Shown: positions 16,282 to 64,000, numbered from the stretch's first letter. The stretch is DNA of 64,000 nt from Candidatus Hydrogenedentota bacterium (GCA_034669905.1 JAXMOL010000007.1:96001-160000), one strand, 5' to 3'. Notes: generated by a model from the letters alone, not told the origin. Numbers and translations are program-made.

Positions 16282-17467
16282 GGCACAACGCCTCAAGCAT
16301 CTGTGCGCTCAGCGCGTCCCGGTCAAAGCGTGTTCGGGCAATTTCTTTGGCATTCTGCCCCATTCGCTGGCGTTTTTCCGGATCGTCCGCCAGGCCTTCC
16401 AGCACCGATACGAGTTCTGCGGGATCGTCGGCAGAAATGGTGTAACCACAATCGCTCTCGGCCACGAAATCTTTGATCCAGCCCTGGGTCGTCTGTACCA
16501 CGGGAATGCCTGCGGCCAGCGAGTCAAACAATTTGTTGGGCGAAGAGGTGTCCAGGATGGGGTTCGCCTGCAGCGGAACGACCGAGCAGAGACTCCGTTG
16601 TACCCAGTGCCGCAACTCGGTCTTGGGCATAAGATCAAGTATGCGAAAGGTGGACAGCCCCATTTCCTGTTGGCGGTCCCGTAGGGCGGTGCGCTCTTGC
16701 CCATCCCCTATCAGCACCACGAGAATGTCTTCGCGGCCCCGTTCCATCAACTGCACCGCCGATTCAAAGAGTAGGGTGGAGTTGTTGATGGCACCAATAT
16801 TGCCCGTATACAGGGCAATTTGTTTCCCTGCGGCCCACTCGGGGGGCTGCCAGGTCGAATCCGTCACGTCCCAGAAATCGTTGTCTGCGGCGTTGGGAAT
16901 AGAGATGACATGGTCGAGGCCATGGGCGGCGCGGATGTGTTCCGCCATGCCGGGTGAGAGGGTGACAATCGTGGAAGCCGCGCGATAGCACCATTTCTCC
17001 AGCAGGCGCGACAGTCCGATTAACACCGGATTCTTCAGGGCACCAATTTCGACGGAGATATCGGGCCACAAGTCGCGGACTTCAAAGACGAGTTTCCGGC
17101 CGCGCAGGTATCGGGCCACAAGGCCGGGAAGTCCCACGGTGAGCGGACCCGAGGAGGCTACGACTACGTCGGCTTTCAAGGTCAGGGCATACCAGGAGGA
17201 GAGGGCGGCAAACGTGAGGAAGGTTCCCACGCGTTTCAGAAAGGGTTCCTTGTTAGAGACCCCGATATTGAGAACTTTTACCTTGATGCCGTCAAATTCC
17301 TGGTCTTCCACCAGCTTTTCTGCGGTCAGATCCGACTTGTAGTACAGGCTGGTCACAATGGTGACATCGTGCCCTTGAGCGACCCAGCGCTTGGCGAATT
17401 CATACACCCGTGTCCCCCAGGAACCCTTGGGGGTGGAGAAATACTGATAGAAATAGACGATTTTCAT
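16271..17467 (-). CDS. Glycosyltransferase family 4 (WbuB-like)
   Basis: Start re-placed at MKIVYFYQYF; GTRVYEFA, VFEVRDLWP, YTGNIG, SPNKLFDSLAAGIPV. Confidence 0.9.
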   Translation of the reverse strand: MKIVYFYQYFSTPKGSWGTRVYEFAKRWVAQGHDVTIVTSLYYKSDLTAEKLVEDQEFDGIKVKVLNIGVSNKEPFLKRVGTFLTFAALSSWYALTLKADVVVASSGPLTVGLPGLVARYLRGRKLVFEVRDLWPDISVEIGALKNPVLIGLSRLLEKWCYRAASTIVTLSPGMAEHIRAAHGLDHVISIPNAADNDFWDVTDSTWQPPEWAAGKQIALYTGNIGAINNSTLLFESAVQLMERGREDILVVLIGDGQERTALRDRQQEMGLSTFRILDLMPKTELRHWVQRSLCSVVPLQANPILDTSSPNKLFDSLAAGIPVVQTTQGWIKDFVAESDCGYTISADDPAELVSVLEGLADDPEKRQRMGQNAKEIARTRFDRDALSAQMLEALCHDR

Positions 17468-42768: not shown

Positions 42769-45099
42769 ATGAAATTCAGATTGATTGTATGCACGTTTTT
42801 GCTCGCCCTGGGGTCAGGAGGCGTTTCCGCAACCGAGTTGGGGGACGTCGCATTCCGACAGGCGCTCCTCGATGTCGAAACAGACCTGCGCCTCATGTGT
42901 GTTGCAGCCCATCCGGATGACGAAGACGGAGCGACCCTGTCCTATTACCGAATGCTTCACGGCATCGAAACCCACGCGGTAATTGCGACGCGGGGGGAAG
43001 GTGGTCAAAACGAAAAGGGGCCCGAGCTCTACAATGCGCTTGGCGTGATTCGTACCCGCGAGATGCGCGCCGCTGCCGCCATCGAGGGGGCCCAGCTCCA
43101 TTTCTTGAATCTGCCGGAATTCGGGTATTCCAAGACGGCCGAAGAGACCCTCGAAATCTGGGGGGAACAGGTCGCCCTGGAGCGTATGGTGCGGGTCATC
43201 CGTGAAACGCGGCCCCACGTCATAATCACCAACCACGGCCGTCTTAAAGACCACGGTCACCACCAGGCCATTGGGGCCATTCTTCAGCGCGCCTTCGATG
43301 TCGCGGGTGACCCGAGTCAGTTTCCGATCCACCGCAGTCAGGGGCTGGAGCCCTGGCAGCCCTTGCGCCTCTACATCCGGGATTTCAAGGGCAGCGAAGG
43401 GGCGGTGGCCAACGATATCGCCACCCTGGAGCCCATTCGGGGAAAAACGATCGCAGAAATTGCGGCCAGTGCCCTGGAAGTCCATGAATCCCAGGGGATG
43501 CGCTTCTTCATTGACCTCCTCCTGTCGACCCAGCCGCGCTCCTTCTATCAGCTCGTGTTGAACAAGCGCGTCGGGGACGTGACCGCGAAGCTCACCGGAA
43601 GAGGGCCCCTGTTTGAAGGGTTGCCGTGGGTGGAAGATGAGAATCGCCCCCAGTTGGATTCCCGTACCGTCAGCCGGGAAGCGGCGAAACCGGTCCTCCT
43701 GTCCTGGCTCGCCGCGAACGAAGATATGCGCACCGGTTCCTTCGATGAACGGGCCCGTTGGGCGGCGGTCAATCGGGCCGCCATCCAGGCGGTGGAACTG
43801 CGGCTCACGACCTCGTTGAGTGATTCGGTGGCGACACCGGGACAAGATGTAAGCATTTCGGCTTCCTTGATTGACTTCGGCGAGCAGGATAGCATCGTCG
43901 CGGATATGGAGTTGACCCACCACCATGGTTTGAACGCCCTCGGCCGCCAGAAGGTGGAGGCTCCCCTTCATCGCACCGGCACCGCCCAGGGCGAGTTCAA
44001 GGTGGCAATCACAGCGGATGCGGACCTGACCTTGCCGCACGCGCCCCGTCTGTTCGACGCCCATTTTCTGGAGCCACAATTGTCCATTGATGCGGAAGTC
44101 ATCTGTGGCAATGCCCTGCTCCATCTTACGGCGCCCGTTTATCTCGACGTGGCGGCACCCCTCACCATCGCATGTCCAGACGCGCCCCTTCTGGTGCGTC
44201 CGGCGAATGCCGGGGCCTTCCCGGTTCGACTGCTCGTCACCAACAATACGCCCGACGCATTGGCGGAATTCCTGAGTCTCGTCGTACCAGACGGTTGGCA
44301 GGTGACGCCGAAGCGGCAATCCCTTTCTCTGGCGCGAGAAGGGGAACAACGCTTTGCCACCTTTTCCGTCACCCCGCCCGAAGGCGTAGCACCCGGGGAT
44401 TACCCGTTGGCGGCCCAGGTTGTGGGAGCAACCACATCTACCGAAATTGCGCTGCGTGTAGTCGATGTGGCGGTGCCGGAGGCGATTCGCGTCGGCGTAA
44501 TCCAGAGTTACGACGATACCTTCGTGACGACCCTGGAGAAGCTGGGTGTGCCCCACGAGACGCTCCAGATCGAGGATTATGTGGAAGAGCGGCTGGATGC
44601 CTTCACGGCCATCATTGTGGACATTCGCGCCTACCAGTACCGACCTGATCTGGTGGCCAACAATGCGTCGTTGCTCGACTATGTGGCCCGCGGGGGCACC
44701 CTGCTTGTCATGTACCAGAAGACCTTCGACTGGAATGATTCCTACGCGCCCTATCCCATTACCTTGTCGCGTAACCGTGTGACCCGTGAGGATGCGCCGA
44801 TCACGATGCTCGAACCCGCGCATCGGCTCTTTACGACGCCCAACCAAATCGGAGCGGGCGATTGGTCAGGCTGGCTACAGGAACGGGGACTCTATTTTCC
44901 GGTGACCTGGTCCGCAGAGTATACACCGCTGATCGCCACGGCCGATCCGGGAGAAGAGTTGCCTCCCGGCTCCTATCTCGTGGCCACCCATGGTAAAGGG
45001 CAGTATGTGTATACCGCGCTCGGCTGGTATCGTCAACTGCGGATGCTTCATCCCGGTGCCCTGCGCTGTTTTGCCAATATGCTCACGCCTGCCCCCTGA
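42769..45099 (+). CDS. Secreted PIG-L family de-N-acetylase with NEW3-like Ig domain and C-terminal glutamine-amidotransferase-like domain
   Basis: AAHPDDE, TRGEGGQN, RT.EM..A, FGYSK, HGHHQ; VPDGW.V.P; YV..GGTLLV.YQ, W..W.QERGLYF, RQL...PGA.R.FAN. Confidence 0.88.
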   Translation: MKFRLIVCTFLLALGSGGVSATELGDVAFRQALLDVETDLRLMCVAAHPDDEDGATLSYYRMLHGIETHAVIATRGEGGQNEKGPELYNALGVIRTREMRAAAAIEGAQLHFLNLPEFGYSKTAEETLEIWGEQVALERMVRVIRETRPHVIITNHGRLKDHGHHQAIGAILQRAFDVAGDPSQFPIHRSQGLEPWQPLRLYIRDFKGSEGAVANDIATLEPIRGKTIAEIAASALEVHESQGMRFFIDLLLSTQPRSFYQLVLNKRVGDVTAKLTGRGPLFEGLPWVEDENRPQLDSRTVSREAAKPVLLSWLAANEDMRTGSFDERARWAAVNRAAIQAVELRLTTSLSDSVATPGQDVSISASLIDFGEQDSIVADMELTHHHGLNALGRQKVEAPLHRTGTAQGEFKVAITADADLTLPHAPRLFDAHFLEPQLSIDAEVICGNALLHLTAPVYLDVAAPLTIACPDAPLLVRPANAGAFPVRLLVTNNTPDALAEFLSLVVPDGWQVTPKRQSLSLAREGEQRFATFSVTPPEGVAPGDYPLAAQVVGATTSTEIALRVVDVAVPEAIRVGVIQSYDDTFVTTLEKLGVPHETLQIEDYVEERLDAFTAIIVDIRAYQYRPDLVANNASLLDYVARGGTLLVMYQKTFDWNDSYAPYPITLSRNRVTREDAPITMLEPAHRLFTTPNQIGAGDWSGWLQERGLYFPVTWSAEYTPLIATADPGEELPPGSYLVATHGKGQYVYTALGWYRQLRMLHPGALRCFANMLTPAP

Positions 45100-52588: not shown

Positions 52589-52616
52589 AGCAGTGGACGA
52601 TGAGGTTCGCCCCGGT

Positions 52617-53183
52617 ATGAGCGAAATCGAAGATTGGGCGTTGGTAGCCCGCGCGCAGGGGGGCGATATGGACGCCTTCCACGTGCTGATTGTGCGCTAT
52701 CAACGGCCAGTTGTTCATTTCTGTTTTCGCATGCTCCAATCGGAGCAGGACGCGGAAGACGTGGCCCAGGAAGTCTTTGTCCGGGTCTATCGTTATCTGG
52801 GTCGCCTCACGCCACAGGCAAAGTTCTCGACGGTACTCTTCGGTATTGCCCGAAATCTCTGCCTGAATTTTATCCGGGATATGAAACGTCGTGGACGCGG
52901 TATGGGCCAGCCCCTGGATTCCCAGCCTGAGCTGGAGTCCAGCGTGCGCTCGCCGTCTCAGGAAGTCCACCTGAGAGAAGTAGAGGCCTGTATCGCAGCG
53001 GCGATGTCCGAGTTGTCCGATGACCATCGTATGGTGCTGTACCTTCGCGACGTGGAGGGCCTGGATTATGATGGCATCGCCCAGGTTATGAAGTGTCGTA
53101 AGGGCACGGTTCGAAGTCGCTTGGCCCGGGCCCGTGAGCAATTGCGCCAACACCTGATTCACTATGGAGACGACCTGCTATGA
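52617..53183 (+). CDS. ECF RNA polymerase sigma factor
   Basis: LVARAQGGD.DAF..L..RY, DAEDVAQEVF, FST.LF.IARN, GLDY..IA......GTVRSRL.RAR. Confidence 0.93.
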   Translation: MSEIEDWALVARAQGGDMDAFHVLIVRYQRPVVHFCFRMLQSEQDAEDVAQEVFVRVYRYLGRLTPQAKFSTVLFGIARNLCLNFIRDMKRRGRGMGQPLDSQPELESSVRSPSQEVHLREVEACIAAAMSELSDDHRMVLYLRDVEGLDYDGIAQVMKCRKGTVRSRLARAREQLRQHLIHYGDDLL

Positions 53184-53824
53184 GCACGCCCCATGTGCTG
53201 GACGAGTTGTCCGCCTATATCGACGGTGAGAGCCGGAATGCACCGGCGATCGCCCGCCATCTTCAGTCTTGTCCGGAGTGCGCCCGGCGGCATGTGGAAT
53301 TGTCCAAACTCACCCGACACGTCCATGCCCTGCCCGCACCGGAAGTGCTCCCCTCGTTTGCGGCCCGCGTCGTGGCACGTCTTGACCAGGCCGACGCCCC
53401 ACCCCGATGGCATGATCGTTTCCTCGTTCAGCATGCCCTCCCCACGGCCTGGGCCCTGGCCGCCGTGTTGCTCATCGTGGGCACGGCCTATGTCGTCATT
53501 CAGGAGGTGGAATCCCGTTCCGACCTGCCCTCAGTCGCGGAATCATCCCCGGCGCCCGTCGAACCCGACCCGGAAGTCCTCGCCCGTATCCTGGATATGG
53601 GAATTTGGGAAGGGCCCTTCGGTGAAGACGAAGCGGAGGTCGCCGAGGAATCGGTGGATCTCAGCGTGGAACTGCTGATTGATTCCCTGGCCGCCATCGC
53701 GGGGGACGCCGAGACGGGCGAGTGGTACGAAGAGGAAGACCTGATGGCCGTTATGGAGGCCCTGGCCCAGGAAGATGTCCAGGTGTTGAGTGAACTGGCC
53801 CGGAACCACTGGGACGAAGGATAA
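53180..53824 (+). CDS. Zinc-binding (zf-HC2) transmembrane anti-sigma factor
   Basis: H..DELSAYIDGE...HLQSCPEC (HxxxCxxC), one TM, acidic C-terminus; ATGA overlap with the sigma gene. Confidence 0.88.
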   Translation: MSTPHVLDELSAYIDGESRNAPAIARHLQSCPECARRHVELSKLTRHVHALPAPEVLPSFAARVVARLDQADAPPRWHDRFLVQHALPTAWALAAVLLIVGTAYVVIQEVESRSDLPSVAESSPAPVEPDPEVLARILDMGIWEGPFGEDEAEVAEESVDLSVELLIDSLAAIAGDAETGEWYEEEDLMAVMEALAQEDVQVLSELARNHWDEG

Positions 53825-53827
53825 GTG

Positions 53828-54454
53828 ATGAAACGATTGGTAATCACCCTGTTGGTACTGAGCGGCTGGGCAGGTGGTGTGTGGGCGGCGCCCGAATCGC
53901 CTTCCCCGGGCACCCCTTCTGGCAGCAAAGGAAATGCGGAAAGCCGTCAATTGCTCGAGGAAATCCTCATGGCGCGATTGACCCGCGAATTGGCCCTGGA
54001 AGATGAGCAGGCTGTGCTTCTGGTTCGCCATATGACCGAGTTCCGGGATCGTATGGCGGCGCTGCGTCGGGAGCGGGGCGAAAAAATGCGGGCCCTTCGA
54101 CAGGTCGTGCGGGAAAGTAATGACGAATCCCGTATACAGCAGCTGATGGACGAAGTGCGGGCAGTCAATGAAAAGAGCATGGCGGCCCGTAATGACGTGC
54201 TCGACTTTGACGGCTTCGAAATGACTACCTGGCAAAAGGCCCGACTCCTTGTATTTCTCAACGACTTTGAGGCCGACATGCGGCGTCTGTTGCGTCGGGC
54301 ACAGGAACATCGTGCCAAAGAAACGGGCCGCCCCGCGCGGGGAGGCGGCGAAGGGCTTGCCGGGGGGCATCGCGAAGACAAAAGGGGCCCCGCTGCAGGT
54401 TCGAAAGAACCCAACGAAAAGGAAGGCTCGAACGCCCCCGCACCATCCGGTTGA
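53828..54454 (+). CDS. Periplasmic helical protein (Spy/CpxP or heavy-metal-sensor-like)
   Basis: Signal peptide; EL.LEDEQ and MTTWQKA (LTxxQ-like) motifs; Met/Arg-rich helices. Confidence 0.7.
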   Translation: MKRLVITLLVLSGWAGGVWAAPESPSPGTPSGSKGNAESRQLLEEILMARLTRELALEDEQAVLLVRHMTEFRDRMAALRRERGEKMRALRQVVRESNDESRIQQLMDEVRAVNEKSMAARNDVLDFDGFEMTTWQKARLLVFLNDFEADMRRLLRRAQEHRAKETGRPARGGGEGLAGGHREDKRGPAAGSKEPNEKEGSNAPAPSG

Positions 54455-56024: not shown

Positions 56025-57209
56025 GTGGCCGTCTTGTCTAAACGACACGAAATTCTCAACGCTGCCTTGCGCGTCTTTCTCGATCTCAGTTGTATCGTGG
56101 GCGTGTACTGCGCCACCGTGTGGCTTGTGATTGGCGAAGAGACCGGTTACGTGCACCAGCTTCAAAACGGTTTGCCCTATGTGGAAGCCATGGTCGTGGT
56201 CTGGTTTCTCGTCGCCGCCGATCAGCGCTTGTTCTTGTCCCGCCGGAGTGAAGCCCTGGTGGCCTTGCTCTTCTCGGTTGCCAAGGCCTTTTTTACCGCG
56301 TTCTTGTTTACCGTATTCATTGTGGCCCTGTTTCTTCAGGAAGATCTTAACCGTACCTTCCTCTTCCTCTTCGGTTTCTTTGTGCTCTTTGGACTGTTAG
56401 CATTTCGCTTGATCCTCGGTCTGAGCCTGTGGAATCTGCGCCGACGTGGCTTTAACTCCCGTCGCATCCTGATTATCGGGAGCAACGAACGGACCCAAAA
56501 ACTCGTGGGTATCCTCCATGCCAACGAGCACTACGGCTACCACGTGGAGGGCTTCCTGGAACATGACCAAGACCGGCGTCACCATCTGGAGTCCCTCGAT
56601 GTACCCTACCTGGGCGACATTGAAGAATTGGACAAAGTGCTGATCAACCGGGTGATCGACGCGGTCTACATCGCGCTGCCCGTCCGCTCCCACTATGAAA
56701 TGATCCAAAGCGCGGCCCACCTCTGCGAAGGGGTTGGCGTTTCGGTCCGATTCATGGCCGATCTCTTTCCCCTGCGAATGGCAACGAGTGATTTGTCCCG
56801 CGTCGGCGATGTGCCACTCCTGACCCTCTCCACCGAGTCCGAAGTGCAGCCGCCTTTCGCCCTTCACCGGGCCATCGACATGGGGGTGTCCCTGCTGTTG
56901 CTGGTTTTTCTTTCACCGATTTGTCTCCTGGTGGCACTCGCCATTAAAATTGATTCACGGGGACCGGTGTTAGTGCGTCGTCCCCGTCTGGGTCCGGGAG
57001 GTCATGCCTTCCAGGATATTGTATTTCGCACGACCGTCGGGGCATCATGGGGGGATAGCGATGCCACGCTGACGCGGGTGGGGAGAATCCTGCGCCGCTA
57101 CGGCATCGACGAATTGCCCCAATTGCTAAATGTATTATCCGGTGACATCAGCCTTGCAGGCCCCACGCACTCCGGTGCCCAGGGTGGCAAGGTGGATAGC
57201 CCGGTCTGA
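56025..57209 (+). CDS. WcaJ/CpsE-like sugar transferase paralog with degenerate, C-terminally truncated catalytic domain
   Basis: Four TM plus CoA-binding-like domain (RILIIG), then IKIDSRGP and IDELPQLLNVL.GD.SL.GP, followed by an early stop. Confidence 0.8.
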   Translation: MAVLSKRHEILNAALRVFLDLSCIVGVYCATVWLVIGEETGYVHQLQNGLPYVEAMVVVWFLVAADQRLFLSRRSEALVALLFSVAKAFFTAFLFTVFIVALFLQEDLNRTFLFLFGFFVLFGLLAFRLILGLSLWNLRRRGFNSRRILIIGSNERTQKLVGILHANEHYGYHVEGFLEHDQDRRHHLESLDVPYLGDIEELDKVLINRVIDAVYIALPVRSHYEMIQSAAHLCEGVGVSVRFMADLFPLRMATSDLSRVGDVPLLTLSTESEVQPPFALHRAIDMGVSLLLLVFLSPICLLVALAIKIDSRGPVLVRRPRLGPGGHAFQDIVFRTTVGASWGDSDATLTRVGRILRRYGIDELPQLLNVLSGDISLAGPTHSGAQGGKVDSPV

Positions 57210-57302
57210 TACGGCGTGGGGCGCGCAGATGCGTTCCAGAAAGGGCATTGGGGCGGGGCCCACAACGTGTAGTACAGGGATTTGAGGAGACCATACGGGC
57301 CT

Positions 57303-58757
57303 GTGTCTGAGAGTAAACCAAGAAAAAGGGTCGTGCCGCCATTCGTACTGGCGCTACTGGACACCTGCTGCATTGTAGGCGCTTTCGCTACGGCCATACA
57401 CTGGTCCACGGAGCTCTACGAGCCGCTCCTGCCCGCCGTCAAATCGAACCTGCTCTACCTCCTCGTCGTTATTCTCGTCTGGTTTGCCGCCGCCCTGGAG
57501 CGCCATTTGTGGAGCCCCACCCGGCGACAGGATGTGGTGCACTACCTGGCCACGGTGACCAAGGCCGTCGGCGACGCCTGTGTCTTTTGTGTATTCGTCA
57601 TGGTCCTTTTCACCCGTAGTGGCGTGAACGAAGAGGGTCAAAGCTACGGCGGCCTGGACCATACCTTTCTCGTCGTTTTTTGCGCAACCACCCTCATCTA
57701 TTTGCTGGTGTTCCGTCTCAGCCTACGGCTGATTGTACGAGAGCTTCGCAACCTCGGTATTAATACCCATCGGGTCCTTATCGTGGGGGCCAACGAGCGC
57801 ACCGTCCACTTGATTCAGGTGTTGAAGATGCAAACGGGTCTCGGGTATACCCTCGAAGGTGTACTGGACGATGAAGCCGGTCGCTGTGAGGAAACCGATG
57901 CAACCGGCGTACCCTATCAGGGAAAGATCGCTACACTGAAGGATCGGCTTGTACAGGGTGAAATCGACGAGGTCTACATCAGCCTTCCGGTTCGCTCGCG
58001 CTATGAAGAGATCCAGGAAATCGCCCACCTCTGTGAAGGTGCGGGCGTGCCCGTCCATCTGGTCGCCGATCTGTTTCCCATGCGAGTCGCCACGAGCCGC
58101 CTGATGCACCTGGAAGATATTCCCCTGCTGAACCTCTCGACCATTCCCGAGGCGCACGGGAAGGTCTTTATGAAGCGGGCAATGGATTTCGTGGGGTCGA
58201 CACTCCTGTTGATTGCACTCGCTGTTCCCCTGACCGTCCTTGCCATCCTCGTGAAGCTGGATTCCAAAGGGCCCGTCTTCTTCCTCCAGGAACGGGTCGG
58301 ACAGAACCAACGCCGCTTCAAGATGATCAAGTTTCGTTCCATGATTGTGAATGCCGAAGAGGTTCAGGCGGCGCTCCTCGATCAAAATGAAATGGACGGT
58401 CCGGTCTTCAAAATAAAGAACGATCCCCGCATTACCCGGCTGGGTCGCTTTATCCGGAAGTACAGTCTGGATGAGTTTCCCCAACTCTTCAATGTCTGGC
58501 GCGGTGAAATGAGTCTGGTGGGCCCACGGCCCCCCATTCCTTCGGAGGTGGAGCAATACACCTGGAGCCAGCGACGTCGCCTGAGCATTAAGCCCGGCAT
58601 GACCGGCTCCTGGCAGGTCAGTGGCCGCAATGAGGTGGGCTTTGAGGAGTGGGTCGAGATGGATCTGGACTATATCGATTCCTGGTCCATTGGTCTTGAT
58701 ATTCTGATCCTGCTCAAGACCTTTCGGGCGGTCGTAGCGGGCCGCGGCGCCTCGTAG
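57303..58757 (+). CDS. Exopolysaccharide biosynthesis polyprenyl glycosylphosphotransferase (WcaJ/CpsE-like)
   Basis: [68 protein letters not shown] 57303 downstream of gaggag. Confidence 0.93.
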
Positions 58758-59124: not shown

Positions 59125-60969
59125 GTGTATCAAATTACCGCGAAATCGGGCAATTCCAAGGGGACTTCCTGGGTTGTGGAGCACGCACCTCTTGTCTTCG
59201 GGCGGGATATGAATTGCGATATCAAGGTGAGTGATCCGCTCGTTTCCAGGCGCCATTGTGAAGTGGCGCTGGCGGATGGAAAAGTAACCCTTCGGGATCT
59301 GGGTAGCAGCAATGCCACATTCGTCAATGGCGAGCCCATCTCAGAGGCGGATCTGGCCGCTGGCGATGAAGTGGCCGTCGGAAGTGCTGTTTTTCTGGTC
59401 ACGCGGGTCCGTGAAGTTGGTACCCAGACACCGCCGCCCTCCCAGGGGAATTCGCCCACTTCTTCCCTGATCATCGGCGAGCCGGTCTATATGAAACGGG
59501 ATAGCGAGACCTTGTTCTCTCAGGCCCGCCCCCGCACGGGGGAGGATCTGGCCGATCTGTTCACACTCAGTCGCGCCCTGAGTGAGGCAAGTACGACCTC
59601 GGGATTGATCACGGCATTAATCCAGCGGGTCGCGGAACGCTTTGAGCCCGAAGCGGTATGCGTCGCCCTCCATCATGCGACGGACGGTACGATGACCTGC
59701 TTCCCCCCCGGCAGCGAAAACAACTTTTTGTCCAAGACGTCTCCAGCGGAGATGGTAAACACCGTATCCACCCGGCAGCGTGGGATGCTGATACCAGAGA
59801 GTTGTCGGAGCCAGGGCGAGGCCGGTATGCGGACCACCGCTGCCGCGCCCATAATTCTGGGAAATGATGTTATCGGGGCATTGCTCGTGCAGGCGACTTC
59901 CCCGGCAAAGATCTATGATGAGACCGACCTCGAATTCCTCATGGCCCAGGCCCTGACTACGGCACCGTATTTCCGCGCAATCGAACGGATGGAACTACTG
60001 GAGCGAGAAAACCGACGCCTGGTGACCAGCGCGGCCGAAGGGCTGGCCATTATTGGCAAGAGTGACGTTATTAACAGGGTCCGTACCCTGGCAAAAGACT
60101 GCGCCCGCTCCGATATGAATGCGCTGATTCTCGGCGAGACGGGAACCGGAAAAGAGCTGGTGGTCAGCATGATTCACCGCCTGTCTGATCGCTCCGACCA
60201 TCCCCTGACCATCATTAACTGTGCCGCCATTCCGGCGGAATTGTTGGAAAGTGAATTGTTCGGGTATGAACGTGGTGCCTTCACCGGTGCCCATGGGCAA
60301 AAGAAGGGCACCTTCGAAGAGAGCGATGGCGGTACCCTGTTCCTCGACGAACTTTGCGATCTGAGCCTGCCCAATCAGGCACGCCTTCTGCGCGTGATTG
60401 AGACCGGCGTGTTTCGACGTCTCGGCGGTCAGGCAGACATTACCGTGAACGTGCGGGTGATTGCCGCAACCAATAAGTCCATTTCCGACGAAGTAGATGC
60501 AGGGCGTTTCCGACGGGACCTGTATCACCGGCTCAATACCTTCGAGATCGTGATACCGCCCCTCCGAGAGCGGCGTTCCGACATTGCTGTTCTGGCGGAG
60601 CACTTTCATCGCGTGGCGCAAGAGCGCCTGGGCTATCGCACCATGGGTTTTTCTGCGGAAGCCATCGAATACCTCAACAATCAGCCGTGGCCGGGCAACG
60701 TCCGGGAGCTGCGCAACGTGGTCGAGCGTGCCATGGTGGTCGCGCCTTATGATGCGATTCGACCAGAAGACCTGCAGCGAGATGTGGTGTACCGGGCCGA
60801 ACGCAAGACCGACACCGAGCCCATACTCACGTTGGCGGAAATGGAAAAGCGCCAGATCATCAAGGCGCTGAACCGCCATGACGGTAATGTGAAGGCGGCT
60901 GCAGAGACCTTGGATATCGGACGAAGCACCCTCTATCGCAAAATTGGCGAGTACGATCTGCCCAGTTAA
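59125..60969 (+). CDS. Sigma54-dependent enhancer-binding protein, FHA-GAF-AAA+-Fis HTH
   Basis: FHA FGRD...VSRRH...DLGSSN.TFVNG; GAF APIILG..VIGAL; GETGTGKE, ESELFGYERGAFTGA, LFLDE, FRRDLYHRL, WPGNVREL.N; AAE.LDIGRSTLYRK; GTG 59125 has gaggag RBS. Confidence 0.95.
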   Translation: MYQITAKSGNSKGTSWVVEHAPLVFGRDMNCDIKVSDPLVSRRHCEVALADGKVTLRDLGSSNATFVNGEPISEADLAAGDEVAVGSAVFLVTRVREVGTQTPPPSQGNSPTSSLIIGEPVYMKRDSETLFSQARPRTGEDLADLFTLSRALSEASTTSGLITALIQRVAERFEPEAVCVALHHATDGTMTCFPPGSENNFLSKTSPAEMVNTVSTRQRGMLIPESCRSQGEAGMRTTAAAPIILGNDVIGALLVQATSPAKIYDETDLEFLMAQALTTAPYFRAIERMELLERENRRLVTSAAEGLAIIGKSDVINRVRTLAKDCARSDMNALILGETGTGKELVVSMIHRLSDRSDHPLTIINCAAIPAELLESELFGYERGAFTGAHGQKKGTFEESDGGTLFLDELCDLSLPNQARLLRVIETGVFRRLGGQADITVNVRVIAATNKSISDEVDAGRFRRDLYHRLNTFEIVIPPLRERRSDIAVLAEHFHRVAQERLGYRTMGFSAEAIEYLNNQPWPGNVRELRNVVERAMVVAPYDAIRPEDLQRDVVYRAERKTDTEPILTLAEMEKRQIIKALNRHDGNVKAAAETLDIGRSTLYRKIGEYDLPS

Positions 60970-61237
60970 TGGTCACTTTCCATGGGCGGAGGGGGCTTCC
61001 CCTGCAAGCATTTTCCCTGGCTGGGCGTTTTCGGACGTGGCGGCAAAAAAAGATGTGGTGTCGAAAAAATTCGTAAGTCATTTTATATCAGTGGTTTGTC
61101 GGGTGTTTTCGCTTACGTGCCGGTTTTCAGCATCTTTCCAAGAAGTAGGGGCCTTCGACAAGGTAGGTGCCCAATTCTTGACGATGGGGCCCCCCTTCCC
61201 CTGCGCGCCCCGTGCCTTTCGGCTTTTCTGCGGGACT

Positions 61238-61276
61238 TTTCTCAAAATGAGAACGCATCTGTCTCGAATCGGATTT
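61238..61276. promoter_or_regulatory. Putative upstream activator sequences for a sigma54 activator
   Basis: Palindrome TTCTCA-AAA-TGAGAA (61239-61253) and a degenerate copy TGTCTCG-AAT-CGGATTT 22 bp downstream. Confidence 0.55.
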
Positions 61277-61348
61277 CGCCCCCTCCCCCGTTACCGATAA
61301 CCTGAGGGACTTTCGGCCTTCCTTCTCAAAAAGTACGCGATAGCGTAC

Positions 61349-61365
61349 TTGGCATCCTAATTGCA
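61349..61365 (+). promoter_or_regulatory. Sigma54 (-24/-12) promoter
   Basis: TTGGCATCCTAATTGCA matches YTGGCAC-N5-TTGCW with the exact GG-N10-GC spacing. Confidence 0.85.
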
Positions 61366-61466
61366 TAGGCTCTATCAGGTCCACAGTAGGCTGGTGTGTC
61401 AGCAGAAGTCTGTGGATCTGAGAGACTTTCCCATCCCGGGAGGGGCGTAGTCAGGAGTTCCCCAGT

Positions 61467-61643
61467 ATGTTTACCATCGAGTCAGAAAAACCCAGTGATG
61501 AGTACACGACCTCGCGTATGAAAAAATGGTACATGGTCCAGTTCAAAGGCTATGAGGTCGTGGATGAGCGCGAGGTGCCCAAAGTGACCTCCCAGGGACG
61601 GTTGACCTATGAGTGTCGTTGGTATCTCCGCCAGGTATCGTGA
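61467..61643 (+). CDS. Small hypothetical protein (58 aa), absent from the ORF track
   Basis: MFTIESEKPSDEYTTSRMKKWYMVQFKGYEVVDEREVPKVTSQGRLTYECRWYLRQVS; AGGAG at 61453-61457; G/C-rich third codon positions; lies downstream of the sigma54 promoter. Confidence 0.75.
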   Translation: MFTIESEKPSDEYTTSRMKKWYMVQFKGYEVVDEREVPKVTSQGRLTYECRWYLRQVS

Positions 61644-61693: not shown

Positions 61694-64000
61694 TCAGTCG
61701 GCGGGGGGGAGTGCGGCCATCTCCGCGCGCAGCCGCGCCCGTCCTTCGTCGCTCAGGCCTTCGGATTGCAGCAGTGTGTCATACTTGGCACGGGCCTCTG
61801 CGTTGCGCCCGGATTGGGCCAGTGCTTTCGCCAGGGCCCACTGGGTGTCTACGTGCTGGGGGAAACTGATTTCACTCGCTTCGAGCAGCGTCACCGCCTC
61901 CTTTACCCGCCCCGTTCGAATCATGGTGTCGGCCCAGTGAACCGCGGTGATGGCCTTGCGCTCGTCCGCGAGGCACACGTGGGCAACCTGAAAAAGTCGG
62001 TCGGCCACGCCATATTCCTGGATACCCGCCGAAACGATGCCCAGATTCAGCGCACTTTCACAGGGCGCATTACCGGCATCGGCAGCCCCCTGATAGGTTT
62101 CATGCAGCATCCGCGCGGCCCAGCCGTAGACTTCCTGGGGTTTCAGCGGGTTATCCACAGGGTGGGTACGTACGCCTGCAAGCAAAACCCGGCTGGCCTG
62201 ATCGAGCTGCTCCACACCACCGGTCAATACGGCGTGTACGGCCGCGACCTGGGGGAGGGGCTCGATGTCCAAGCCAGCCAGCGTGTCACAGACCGCCAGA
62301 ATGGTTTCTTTTAACCGGGGTACCTGGTTCTGCTCGTAGGCGAAGCCGGCAAAACGACTCCAGGTCGCCGGACGCATGGGGCCTGCATTCAAGGAGGCGA
62401 CGTAGGCATCCCCTGCACTGGTGACGTCCTGATAGCCTTCAAGGTGTACGGTGGCAAGCCAATCGAATGCGATGGCCAACCCTTCATCGGCACCCGTGTC
62501 GTCGCCACTCCGCTGGGCGAGCTGGAGTTCGTCAATCATACGATAGAGGGCGTCCCGCATGGGGCCGAAGTCGCCGCTTTCCCGGGCGAAGGTCAGGAAG
62601 AGTTCCCAGGAGCGGTTGTCCCGTCCCTGATCGGCCTGCACCGCACCGAGGAGCGCCCGCTCAGTGGCCGCCGGGTCGCCGAGACTGGATTCAATACGGG
62701 CAATCATACGGTAGAGATCGCCGGCATTCTCAGCACCATGATCGATGGCCTGTTTCAGGTAGTTCCGCGCTTCCAACCAATGGGCATTCGCGACCGCCGG
62801 ATCGGCGTTGGGGGTAAAGCTCCGCTCAATGATAGCGGCAATGGATTCGACCCGCCCAAGCGTTTCTTCGGCAATAGGGAAGCGGGGCGCGGCTTCCAGG
62901 ACGTGTTGGGCATGCATCCGCGCTTCGTCCAGATAGCCCTTGGCTTCCGTAGCCCCGGCCGCCCCTTGCTGCATGGCCTGCTGGGCGAGGAGAAGGCTGG
63001 CCCGGGCCATGGGAAGGCGGGTCAGCAGGTAGTAGGGGTTCTGCTCCAGGGAACGGTTGAAATGGGGACGGCTTTCGCCGAGTTTGCCCTCATCTACGAG
63101 GGTCATGCCAATACGCCGTGAGGCGTGCCAGTTCCAGGGGGCAGCTGCTTCCGCGCGGGCGTAGGCTTCCCGTGCCGTGGCCAGCTCCCCGTCGGCGTGG
63201 GCCCGCATGCCCGTGTAGAAATGATATTCGCCCGCGAAGTCTTTGGTTATCTGTCGGGTGCTTAGTACCAGCAGCAGGATGAAGGCCACGCGGGCACCAT
63301 GGCGCTGCCACGCCGGAGCCTGCTTTTCTGCGGCCGCTTCCGATGCCCAGAGCCCGTCCAGTATTCCCAGTAACAAGAAGAAGACGGCCGCCGTTACGGG
63401 AACCCGCAGGTTAAACCCGAAGAGTCCGTCGATAGCAAAGGCGGTAAAGAGGGCCGCCAGGGTGAAGCCCATGCGGCGTTGCCCGGGGGTGCTGTTTCGT
63501 GCGACGTAGAGGAGGCTGTAGCTGATACCCAGCAACAGGGTGGCCAGGTAGAGGCCGGCGGCCGCAAGCCCGCCGTCGATACCCATCTCGATGAGGTCAT
63601 TGTGGACGTGGCCATTCATCCGTATTTCCTGGGCGAACCAATCCTGTTCGAAGGGCGTCCAATAGGGGGCATAGGCCAGTCCGTAGACCGCCGGCCCATG
63701 GCCCAGCAGGGGCGCGTCCAGCAGCATGTTGGTGGCACTGACGTAAGATTGATAGCGGAGGAGGAGGGAGAGGTCCAGGGGAAAGGCGTAGCCGGTTCGG
63801 GTGTAGGTCCAATACATGGCGCCTGCCAGGGCGGTTATTCCCAGCACGGCCACGAGGGATACGGTCGTCACCACGGCGCCCGTGGGGCGTTTCGGGTGGC
63901 GAAGCAGGGCATAGCCCACGGCGACCAGCACCGCGGCGCCGGCCAGGGCAATCCAACCGGCCCGTTGATCGGTGCGGTAAAGATGAAACAAGAGGAAGGG
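61694..64000 (-). CDS. O-antigen ligase (Wzy_C) family protein with extended TPR region, 5' end outside the window
   Basis: TDQRAGW, PLLGHGP, HVHNDLIE.G.DGG, DGLFGFNLRVP, then many TPR-like helices; frame is open to the window edge. Confidence 0.88.
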   Translation of the reverse strand, partial: PFLLFHLYRTDQRAGWIALAGAAVLVAVGYALLRHPKRPTGAVVTTVSLVAVLGITALAGAMYWTYTRTGYAFPLDLSLLLRYQSYVSATNMLLDAPLLGHGPAVYGLAYAPYWTPFEQDWFAQEIRMNGHVHNDLIEMGIDGGLAAAGLYLATLLLGISYSLLYVARNSTPGQRRMGFTLAALFTAFAIDGLFGFNLRVPVTAAVFFLLLGILDGLWASEAAAEKQAPAWQRHGARVAFILLLVLSTRQITKDFAGEYHFYTGMRAHADGELATAREAYARAEAAAPWNWHASRRIGMTLVDEGKLGESRPHFNRSLEQNPYYLLTRLPMARASLLLAQQAMQQGAAGATEAKGYLDEARMHAQHVLEAAPRFPIAEETLGRVESIAAIIERSFTPNADPAVANAHWLEARNYLKQAIDHGAENAGDLYRMIARIESSLGDPAATERALLGAVQADQGRDNRSWELFLTFARESGDFGPMRDALYRMIDELQLAQRSGDDTGADEGLAIAFDWLATVHLEGYQDVTSAGDAYVASLNAGPMRPATWSRFAGFAYEQNQVPRLKETILAVCDTLAGLDIEPLPQVAAVHAVLTGGVEQLDQASRVLLAGVRTHPVDNPLKPQEVYGWAARMLHETYQGAADAGNAPCESALNLGIVSAGIQEYGVADRLFQVAHVCLADERKAITAVHWADTMIRTGRVKEAVTLLEASEISFPQHVDTQWALAKALAQSGRNAEARAKYDTLLQSEGLSDEGRARLRAEMAALPPAD

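Follow-up and report, generated by a model that had tools for sequence, protein, structure and literature searches.

We conclude that the FHA-GAF sigma54 activator described here, from uncultured Hydrogenedentota bacteria, probably switches a small sigma54 regulon, made up of a microprotein gene next to the activator and a structured RNA on another contig (C21) that would serve as a sponge or target of a conserved small RNA (sRNA). Comparison of sequences establishes the activator's domains, a conserved spacing of enhancer and promoter at each of the two targets, selection for coding in the small ORF, the predicted hairpins of the C21 RNA and the complementarity between the two RNAs. At this level of evidence, the features point to a circuit of RNA control not described before, and away from a one-gene switch.

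The activator and its genome

The window, which is the whole 64,000-nt stretch of DNA that was analysed, corresponds to G000:C7:96001-160000, where G000 denotes the window's own genome (7.44 Mb). All organism-named homologs of its proteins come from Candidatus Hydrogenedentes/Hydrogenedentota. A domain scan of G000 counted 24 sigma54-activator, 14 FHA and 30 Ser/Thr kinase ORFs. The genome encodes CsrA and also rpoN (Sigma54_DBD, 215 bits), whose absence, according to an earlier note on this DNA, would have spoken against a sigma54 circuit. Neither Hfq nor ProQ was found in any of the five genomes tested (G000 and four others, two of these single-contig).

By the criteria of its sequence, the activator is a sigma54 enhancer-binding protein, combining an AAA domain, a GAFTGA loop that is intact as the earlier note described, and a Fis-type HTH with an rpoN gene in the same genome (Table 1). 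Pfam places FHA at aa 24-86, GAF at 162-274, Sigma54_activat at 309-475 (217 bits; cut-off 20.2) and HTH_8 at 569-610 (56.7 bits). The start codon is GTG and aligns with the start Met in 7/7 orthologs. The G-R, S-x-x-H and N-G motifs of FHA domains serve phosphothreonine binding, and they are invariant in all eight aligned rows. The FHA part of the earlier reading thus stands, with the phosphothreonine-binding residues kept and the 30 kinase ORFs present in the genome, and the activator is likely phosphorylation-sensing. A Thr in a linker motif similar to that of Thr112 was seen by eye in most of 30 activator homologs. Among the 24 sigma54 activators of G000, the recognition helix IGRSTLYRKI occurs in this one only.

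Table 1. Features of the activator unit and its neighbour, in positions of the window
Feature	Position	Strand	Basis
FHA-linker-GAF-AAA(sigma54)-Fis-HTH enhancer-binding protein, 614 aa	59125..60969	+	Pfam; start by alignment
FHA domain, G-R / S-x-x-H / N-G motifs intact	59194..59382	+	Pfam, alignment
Linker Thr112 in T-x-x-L, candidate internal phosphothreonine ligand of the FHA domain	59458..59469	+	inferred; 8/8 rows invariant
GAFTGA loop, intact	60274..60291	+	sequence
Enhancer site 1, TTCTCA-AAA-TGAGAA, ~110 bp upstream of promoter box	61239..61253	.	sequence scan
Enhancer site 2, degenerate, 22 bp after site 1	61261..61275	.	matrix/mismatch scan
Sigma54 -24/-12 promoter TTGGCA-TCCTAA-TTGCA (GG 61351, GC 61363)	61349..61365	+	sequence; predicted start ~61375-61377
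5' leader, predicted hairpins, one over AGGAG RBS (61453-61457)	61376..61466	+	folding, z -2.08
58-aa protein, unnamed Hydrogenedentota small-protein family	61467..61643	+	profile, alignment, AlphaFold2
O-antigen-ligase/TPR gene, convergent neighbour outside the unit	61694..64000	-	Pfam

The paired enhancer, promoter and small ORF beside the activator

The earlier note had described a palindrome with a degenerate copy, a near-consensus -24/-12 promoter, an AGGAG ribosome binding site and a 58-codon ORF downstream of the activator, and we found each of these where it had been placed. The palindrome TTCTCA-N3-TGAGAA occurs nowhere else in the genome. The second site is very degenerate in G000 and fails a 4-mismatch cut-off; in the genus orthologs, all seven have two sites within that cut-off, spaced 21-23 bp, with the first site 97-132 bp upstream of the -24/-12 box. 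When the intergenic region was shuffled 5000 times, the paired-enhancer score was never reached and the promoter score was reached twice, the latter figure being flattered because the promoter matrix contained the identical box from G007. No IHF consensus was found between enhancer and promoter. The predicted leader fold was equalled in stability by 5 of 200 shuffles. On the plus strand, no terminator-like site was found after the ORF, and an Rfam scan of this region gave no match.

Promoter, paired enhancer and ORF are kept together in eight of nine genus genomes, where the small ORF also follows the activator, so the synteny that the earlier note had proposed to test is present. The exception is G003, where the convergent ligase gene comes directly after the activator without a small ORF. 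Codon comparison shows purifying selection on the ORF (dN 0.01 and dS 0.85 between G000 and G007 over 43 core codons; pN < pS in 28/28 pairs). These comparisons support the reading that a sigma54 promoter with a paired enhancer drives a real protein-coding gene.

The next gene, for an O-antigen ligase plus TPR, is convergent, as had been stated. The envelope-glycan setting that the earlier note mentioned is an arrangement of the genus; more distant activator loci with a visible output have other neighbours. Elsewhere in the window, genes for an ECF sigma factor, a zinc-finger anti-sigma factor and a CpxP/Spy-like periplasmic protein lie in series (52593-54454), a tandem pair of WcaJ-like sugar transferase genes occupies 56025-58757, the first with a shortened Bac_transf domain (profile 2-107/179), and TGGCA-N6-TTGC has two more matches, at 16789 and 50881.

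A predicted second target on contig C21

We built an enhancer matrix from 14 sites of seven other genomes and used it to rank the 499 sigma54-like promoters of G000. A site at C21:64732 scored 38.4, the window's site 27.4 and the next best 12.2. The C21 target spans G000:C21:64732-65100 (L189:2233-2600), with a paired enhancer at C21:64732-64769 and a -24/-12 box at 64876 (+); no activator was found near it. An arginyl-tRNA-protein-transferase (ate) gene precedes the enhancer and promoter. Downstream of these comes a structured stretch (z -2.64), and after it an MscS-like gene, a short membrane ORF and two Ser/Thr kinase genes.

The arrangement recurs after the same ate gene in all nine genus genomes: two enhancer sites near -144 and -121, the first of them weak in three genomes, a -24/-12 box and, 38-43 nt past the start of that box, CUCCGGUGAG. 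Hairpins and a GGG(C/G)UGYGG stretch are likewise present in the RNA of all nine. A covariance model trained on the five genus genomes in which the mscS-like gene was found detected the RNA in 9/9 genus genomes and 0/126 others; base-pair counts for the sigma54 RNA lean toward the model, because the alignment was fitted to it and included partial matches. The sigma54 RNAs had no match in Rfam at the gathering score. Because the C21 RNA runs into coding genes in the genus, with no terminator seen, it may be a 5' leader.

The earlier note had called the circuit self-contained and dedicated to one small protein. Neither description is supported: a higher-scoring paired enhancer with a -24/-12 box lies on C21 with no activator nearby, and it is kept in 9/9 genus genomes, among them G003, where the activator has no small ORF behind it.

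The paired enhancer across the phylum

The strict paired site was found in 25 of 135 genomes, and a reversed control gave none. Outside the genus, every one of the 20 enhancer loci has a -24/-12 box at a distance of 120-144 bp, and at 16 of the 20 an activator ortholog stands back-to-back with a predicted non-coding transcript, with no small ORF. The neighbouring target of the activator is usually such a transcript, contrary to a switch dedicated to one small protein. The predicted transcripts are structured and ~230-370 nt long, and most end in hairpins and a U-tract. At L256-L264 (family f13), a sigma54 transcript of ~300 nt, predicted to run divergently from the activator, has a long C/U-rich middle and a terminator, and the genomes concerned lack the small protein. 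Six f11 enhancer loci are without the CUCCGGUGAG motif and family f13 carries a changed form of it, and no partner RNAs were found for those f11 and f13 loci.

From the unique recognition helix, the back-to-back loci and the different repeat, GTCCAGAWTCTGGAC, carried by the loci of another FHA-GAF clade, we infer that this activator, rather than another, reads both targets. On the same comparative footing, the RNA would be the older of the two. Three genus loci (L201, L203 and L266, in G001, G006 and G002) have paired sites between divergent genes and no -24/-12 box; these are possible repression sites.

A conserved sRNA complementary to the C21 RNA

A search with the complement of CUCCGGUGAG in five genus genomes yielded one 20-mer common to all five. 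It lies in an unannotated, near-invariant sRNA within a non-coding stretch of contig C1 (G000 C1 ~43990-44120; L286:1445-1580). In the sRNA, a variable hairpin is followed by CCUCACC, unpaired between two hairpins, then by a 12-bp stem that does not vary and carries a C-rich loop, and by a terminator-like hairpin that shows compensatory changes; across 5/5 aligned genomes, a core of 41 nt is invariant. It was found in 16 genomes, 11/135 by a 3-mismatch pattern and 5/5 distant genomes by a looser one. Its hairpin unit occurs in tandem copies at L303 (G025), L297 (G037) and L293 (G085). Upstream of the C1 copy we saw by eye a sigma70-like TAGACA-N17-TACACT with an enhancer-like half-site between the boxes.

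In 15/15 genome pairs, the longest perfect complement between the sigma54 RNA, or a motif-bearing leader, and the sRNA is 10-15 nt. Shuffled targets gave a mean of ~6.7 nt with maxima of 9-16, so a single RNA pair proves little. Complementarity at the first pairing site follows from the search itself, which looked for the motif's complement; where that site sits, within one conserved RNA, and the existence of a second site are independent of how the search was done. In G037 and G025 the longest complement (12 and 10 nt) is this second, unsearched site, whose flanks change together on both molecules, a covariation seen in these two genomes. GGAGAUG, part of the sRNA's complementary stretch, sits within a stable stem.

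The motif CUCCGGUGAG also stands in the leaders of four small-protein genes of other families (L129, L137, L156 and L168) and just downstream of one more (L304). Within one mismatch it was found in 5/135 leaders of the small-protein family; the window's own leader is without it, the best match having four mismatches. A DUF1559/prepilin-like gene (G000:C60:8913) was set aside as a motif target, its 12-nt complement over the ribosome binding site recurring in G007 alone among five genomes. The best Rfam hit of the sRNA, MmgR/suhB (RF00519), was rejected because its 23.7 bits (E 0.0086) fall short of the gathering score, 41. An identity of the C21 or C1 RNA with Pxr (RF01812) was rejected as well, the sole G000 hit lying on C47 with 23.5 bits against a threshold of 80.

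The small protein and its family

As a single query, the 58-aa protein matched in 47 of 101 genomes, and a profile extended the family to 89/135 Hydrogenedentota genomes, with four paralogs in G000. At 50% identity, the matches of a 150-row profile (E up to 0.001) fell into 447 clusters, including at least one chance repeat; P0092 was rejected as a member on that account. All organism-named matches come from Hydrogenedentes/Hydrogenedentota. Among the G000 paralogs, at C1:265524-265712, C46:45234-45426 and C3 ~119530-119720 (-), one follows a tRNA-like gene, one follows gidA/mnmG and one has a variant -24/-12 box, TTGGCAC-AGGAC-TGGCA.

Members are 50-75 aa long (median 63), with a median net charge of +6 and 96% positive. 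They share T-x-S, WWL, GY, P, G, Y and W-x-L and a predicted strand, helix and long beta-hairpin. Over 150 rows, Thr14, Ser16, Gly28, Pro38 and Gly44 each reach a conservation of 93% or more, and Trp/Tyr occupy five other positions. AlphaFold2 models the 58-aa protein (mean pLDDT 74.8) as a short strand, a helix at 17-26 and a hairpin at 29-40/46-56.

Fold searches with the predicted structure returned no significant match. Alba-like, dodecin-like and GvpA-like small folds were considered as candidates; dodecin and GvpA were not among the fold matches listed, and neither family was found in five genomes (the GvpA control had no match anywhere). Pfam gave nothing at cut-off for the 150 rows, the best being THSD1_N (E 0.003, seven rows; 15.9 bits for the window protein against a cut-off of 27). 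NCBIfam and PHROGs gave isolated weak matches for 31 rows, a PDB sequence search found nothing beyond a match of 18 residues to PsaL (E no better than 0.08), and the ESM Atlas had no usable match for the window protein or member P0029. No longer or fused form occurred among 7248 candidates; long profile matches proved to be N-terminal extensions.

We sampled 139 distinct members for promoters and adjacency, drawn from the matches listed and 100 further regions; 29 profile matches and a few others fall outside this sample. A -24/-12 consensus lies upstream of 33 of the 134 members with enough upstream DNA (antisense 0; control ORFs 15/1491) and is absent from the other 101, while a sigma54 activator lies within 700 nt of 21/139 (13 members after the activator, 8 before). 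The family is thus often, and mostly not, tied to sigma54. At L044, L052, L129, L147 and L106, from several families, the sigma54 promoter is separated from the small-protein gene by a stand-alone Fis-like HTH ORF, as seen by eye. The gene neighbours of the family are diverse (189 clusters among 266 neighbours; 45 scanned), the only hints being activators and some kinases. A family tree built by a quick method left 70 of its 136 branches open; on it, five changes in activator adjacency are needed, of which well-supported branches force only one.

A helix-hairpin that is basic and rich in aromatic residues, encoded by hosts in which neither Hfq nor ProQ was detected, suggests that the protein binds nucleic acid. 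Tentatively, it may act within this circuit by such binding or by feedback, which is the weakest step of our reading and one that we regard as less likely than not. It would not be required for the RNA arm, because family f13 has the activator and the RNA and in 0/10 genomes the small protein.

Proposed circuit and alternative explanations

In the circuit that we propose, the input would be phosphothreonine binding by the FHA domain, gated by Ser/Thr kinases and possibly involving linker Thr112; a ligand at the GAF domain would be an alternative input. The activator would bind the paired TTCYCA-W3-TGRGAA sites and elicit sigma54 transcripts from both targets, as the conserved geometry suggests. 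The C21 RNA would then pair with the C1 sRNA in the cell; a free-standing RNA of this kind would be a sponge, and one at the head of an mRNA a target. A bolder version appears improbable to us: a lineage-wide network without Hfq or ProQ, in which an activator gated by Ser/Thr phosphorylation makes an RNA sponge that inactivates a near-invariant anti-Shine-Dalgarno sRNA and the basic, multi-copy protein of ~60 aa, also under this switch, represents a new RNA-binding or RNA-matchmaking class.

The C21 element could instead be a mere 5' leader of the mRNA for the MscS-like or small membrane protein, with the C1 sRNA regulating that mRNA directly and the regulon in this genus comprising two ordinary coding units that might serve in envelope or osmotic stress. 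An mscS-like gene or a membrane ORF of 74-82 aa does lie ~210-420 nt after the RNA in 9/9 genus genomes, and the same motif stands in leaders of the four small-protein genes. However, the activator-adjacent transcripts of f10, f13 and part of f11 end in hairpins, mostly with a U-tract, and are followed by a convergent or far gene, while the mscS-like gene was found in just five of the nine genus genomes. We consider a mere leader unlikely. The earlier note's version, in which the activator serves the 58-aa protein alone and a different regulator reads the C21 site, would account for the adjacency and geometry kept in 8/9 genus genomes; with 24 sigma54 activators in the genome, the attribution of a site to one of them is sequence-based. 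It is very unlikely in view of the 16 loci where the paired motif adjoins an activator ortholog without a small ORF, the retention of activator and C21 site in G003 with no ORF after the activator, and a recognition helix shared with no other G000 activator.

Two further explanations concern the partners of the RNA and the protein. The sigma54 RNA might be a CsrB/RsmZ-like sponge for CsrA, which is present, with the small protein unrelated to RNA control. GGA is enriched in three f11 transcripts (L250, L251 and L252) and one f10 transcript, and one f11 transcript has a weak RsmY hit (E 0.13; 22.5 bits vs 57), but the 32 transcripts together hold 188 GGA vs 152 expected, the genus RNAs are enriched in 0/9 cases at p<0.05 and the conserved motifs are not GGA loops, which makes this explanation highly improbable. 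Alternatively, the near-invariant Thr of the small protein could bind the FHA domain of FHA-GAF activators, which would make the protein a phosphothreonine decoy or a modulator by feedback. The conservation of Thr14 (94%) and Ser16 (95%) over the 150 rows is consistent with this, as is the occurrence, in several families, of family genes on one side or the other of FHA-GAF activators. FHA ligands have Asp or an aliphatic residue three after the Thr, unlike the mostly Arg (57%) found there in the family; the T-x-S precedes a helix and may be its cap; and 118/139 analysed members have no activator within 700 nt. When the FHA-GAF part was modelled together with the small protein, the predicted complex scored 0.51 and a control 0.67, and we weigh this neither for nor against a decoy. 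A decoy role seems rather improbable to us, and the regulon of microprotein gene and sponge or target RNA is the reading that we prefer.

Comparison with known systems

FHA-bearing enhancer-binding proteins were reportedly described in Myxococcus xanthus by Jelsbak, Givskov and Kaiser in 2005. The activator resembles these in its fusion of an FHA domain to a sigma54 activator in a kinase-rich genome, and differs in its phylum, its GAF domain and its conserved linker Thr. The likeness is one of domain make-up; for the Hydrogenedentota activator, the enhancer motif and targets are predicted by comparative genomics. Sigma54 activators that drive sRNAs are known, as are FHA-bearing activators. Here both themes are joined at one locus, together with three unnamed parts: a phylum-wide microprotein family without a fold match, a predicted sigma54-dependent structured RNA and a conserved complementary sRNA. 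The circuit is specified to sequence level (enhancer, promoters, candidate phosphosite and a predicted RNA-RNA pair with a natural compensatory change), and it bears on the targets of FHA activators and on sRNA pairing in bacteria without Hfq or ProQ.

Literature searches, with subscription journals and supplements outside their scope, found no paper on these elements and none on Hydrogenedentota with a small RNA; in the accessible part of a paper on Hydrogenedentota physiology (PMC10866078), sigma54 appears only in a reference title. The C1 RNA is like MmgR/suhB (RF00519) in having C-rich single strands before a terminator-like hairpin, and unlike it in that its 5' hairpin and seed lie outside the match.

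According to the accessible text of two papers, the myxobacterial PxrR (Nla19)-Pxr system has a sigma54 activator beside the sigma54 promoter of a multi-hairpin sRNA (PMC5568312, PMC5684412), and M. xanthus has no Hfq (PMC5684412). As far as those parts go, the Hydrogenedentota circuit shares the activator next to the sigma54 promoter of a structured RNA and a host without detected Hfq. It differs in that PxrR belongs to the NtrC-like response regulators, the C21 RNA gives no match to the Pxr model RF01812, the RNA here is complementary to another sRNA and the predicted regulon includes a microprotein. In Pseudomonas, CbrB is described, in the portion available, as a sigma54 activator that acts from multiple spaced sites and drives the sRNAs CrcZ and CrcY as well as coding targets (PMC6296734). 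Several spaced sites and predicted RNA and coding targets are found here too, whereas the CbrB sites in that account are non-palindromic subsites and CbrB belongs to a two-component system. CrcZ titrates a protein, whereas here RNA-RNA pairing is predicted. The Hydrogenedentota circuit thus resembles PxrR-Pxr and CbrB-CrcZ in its working and is a member of neither.
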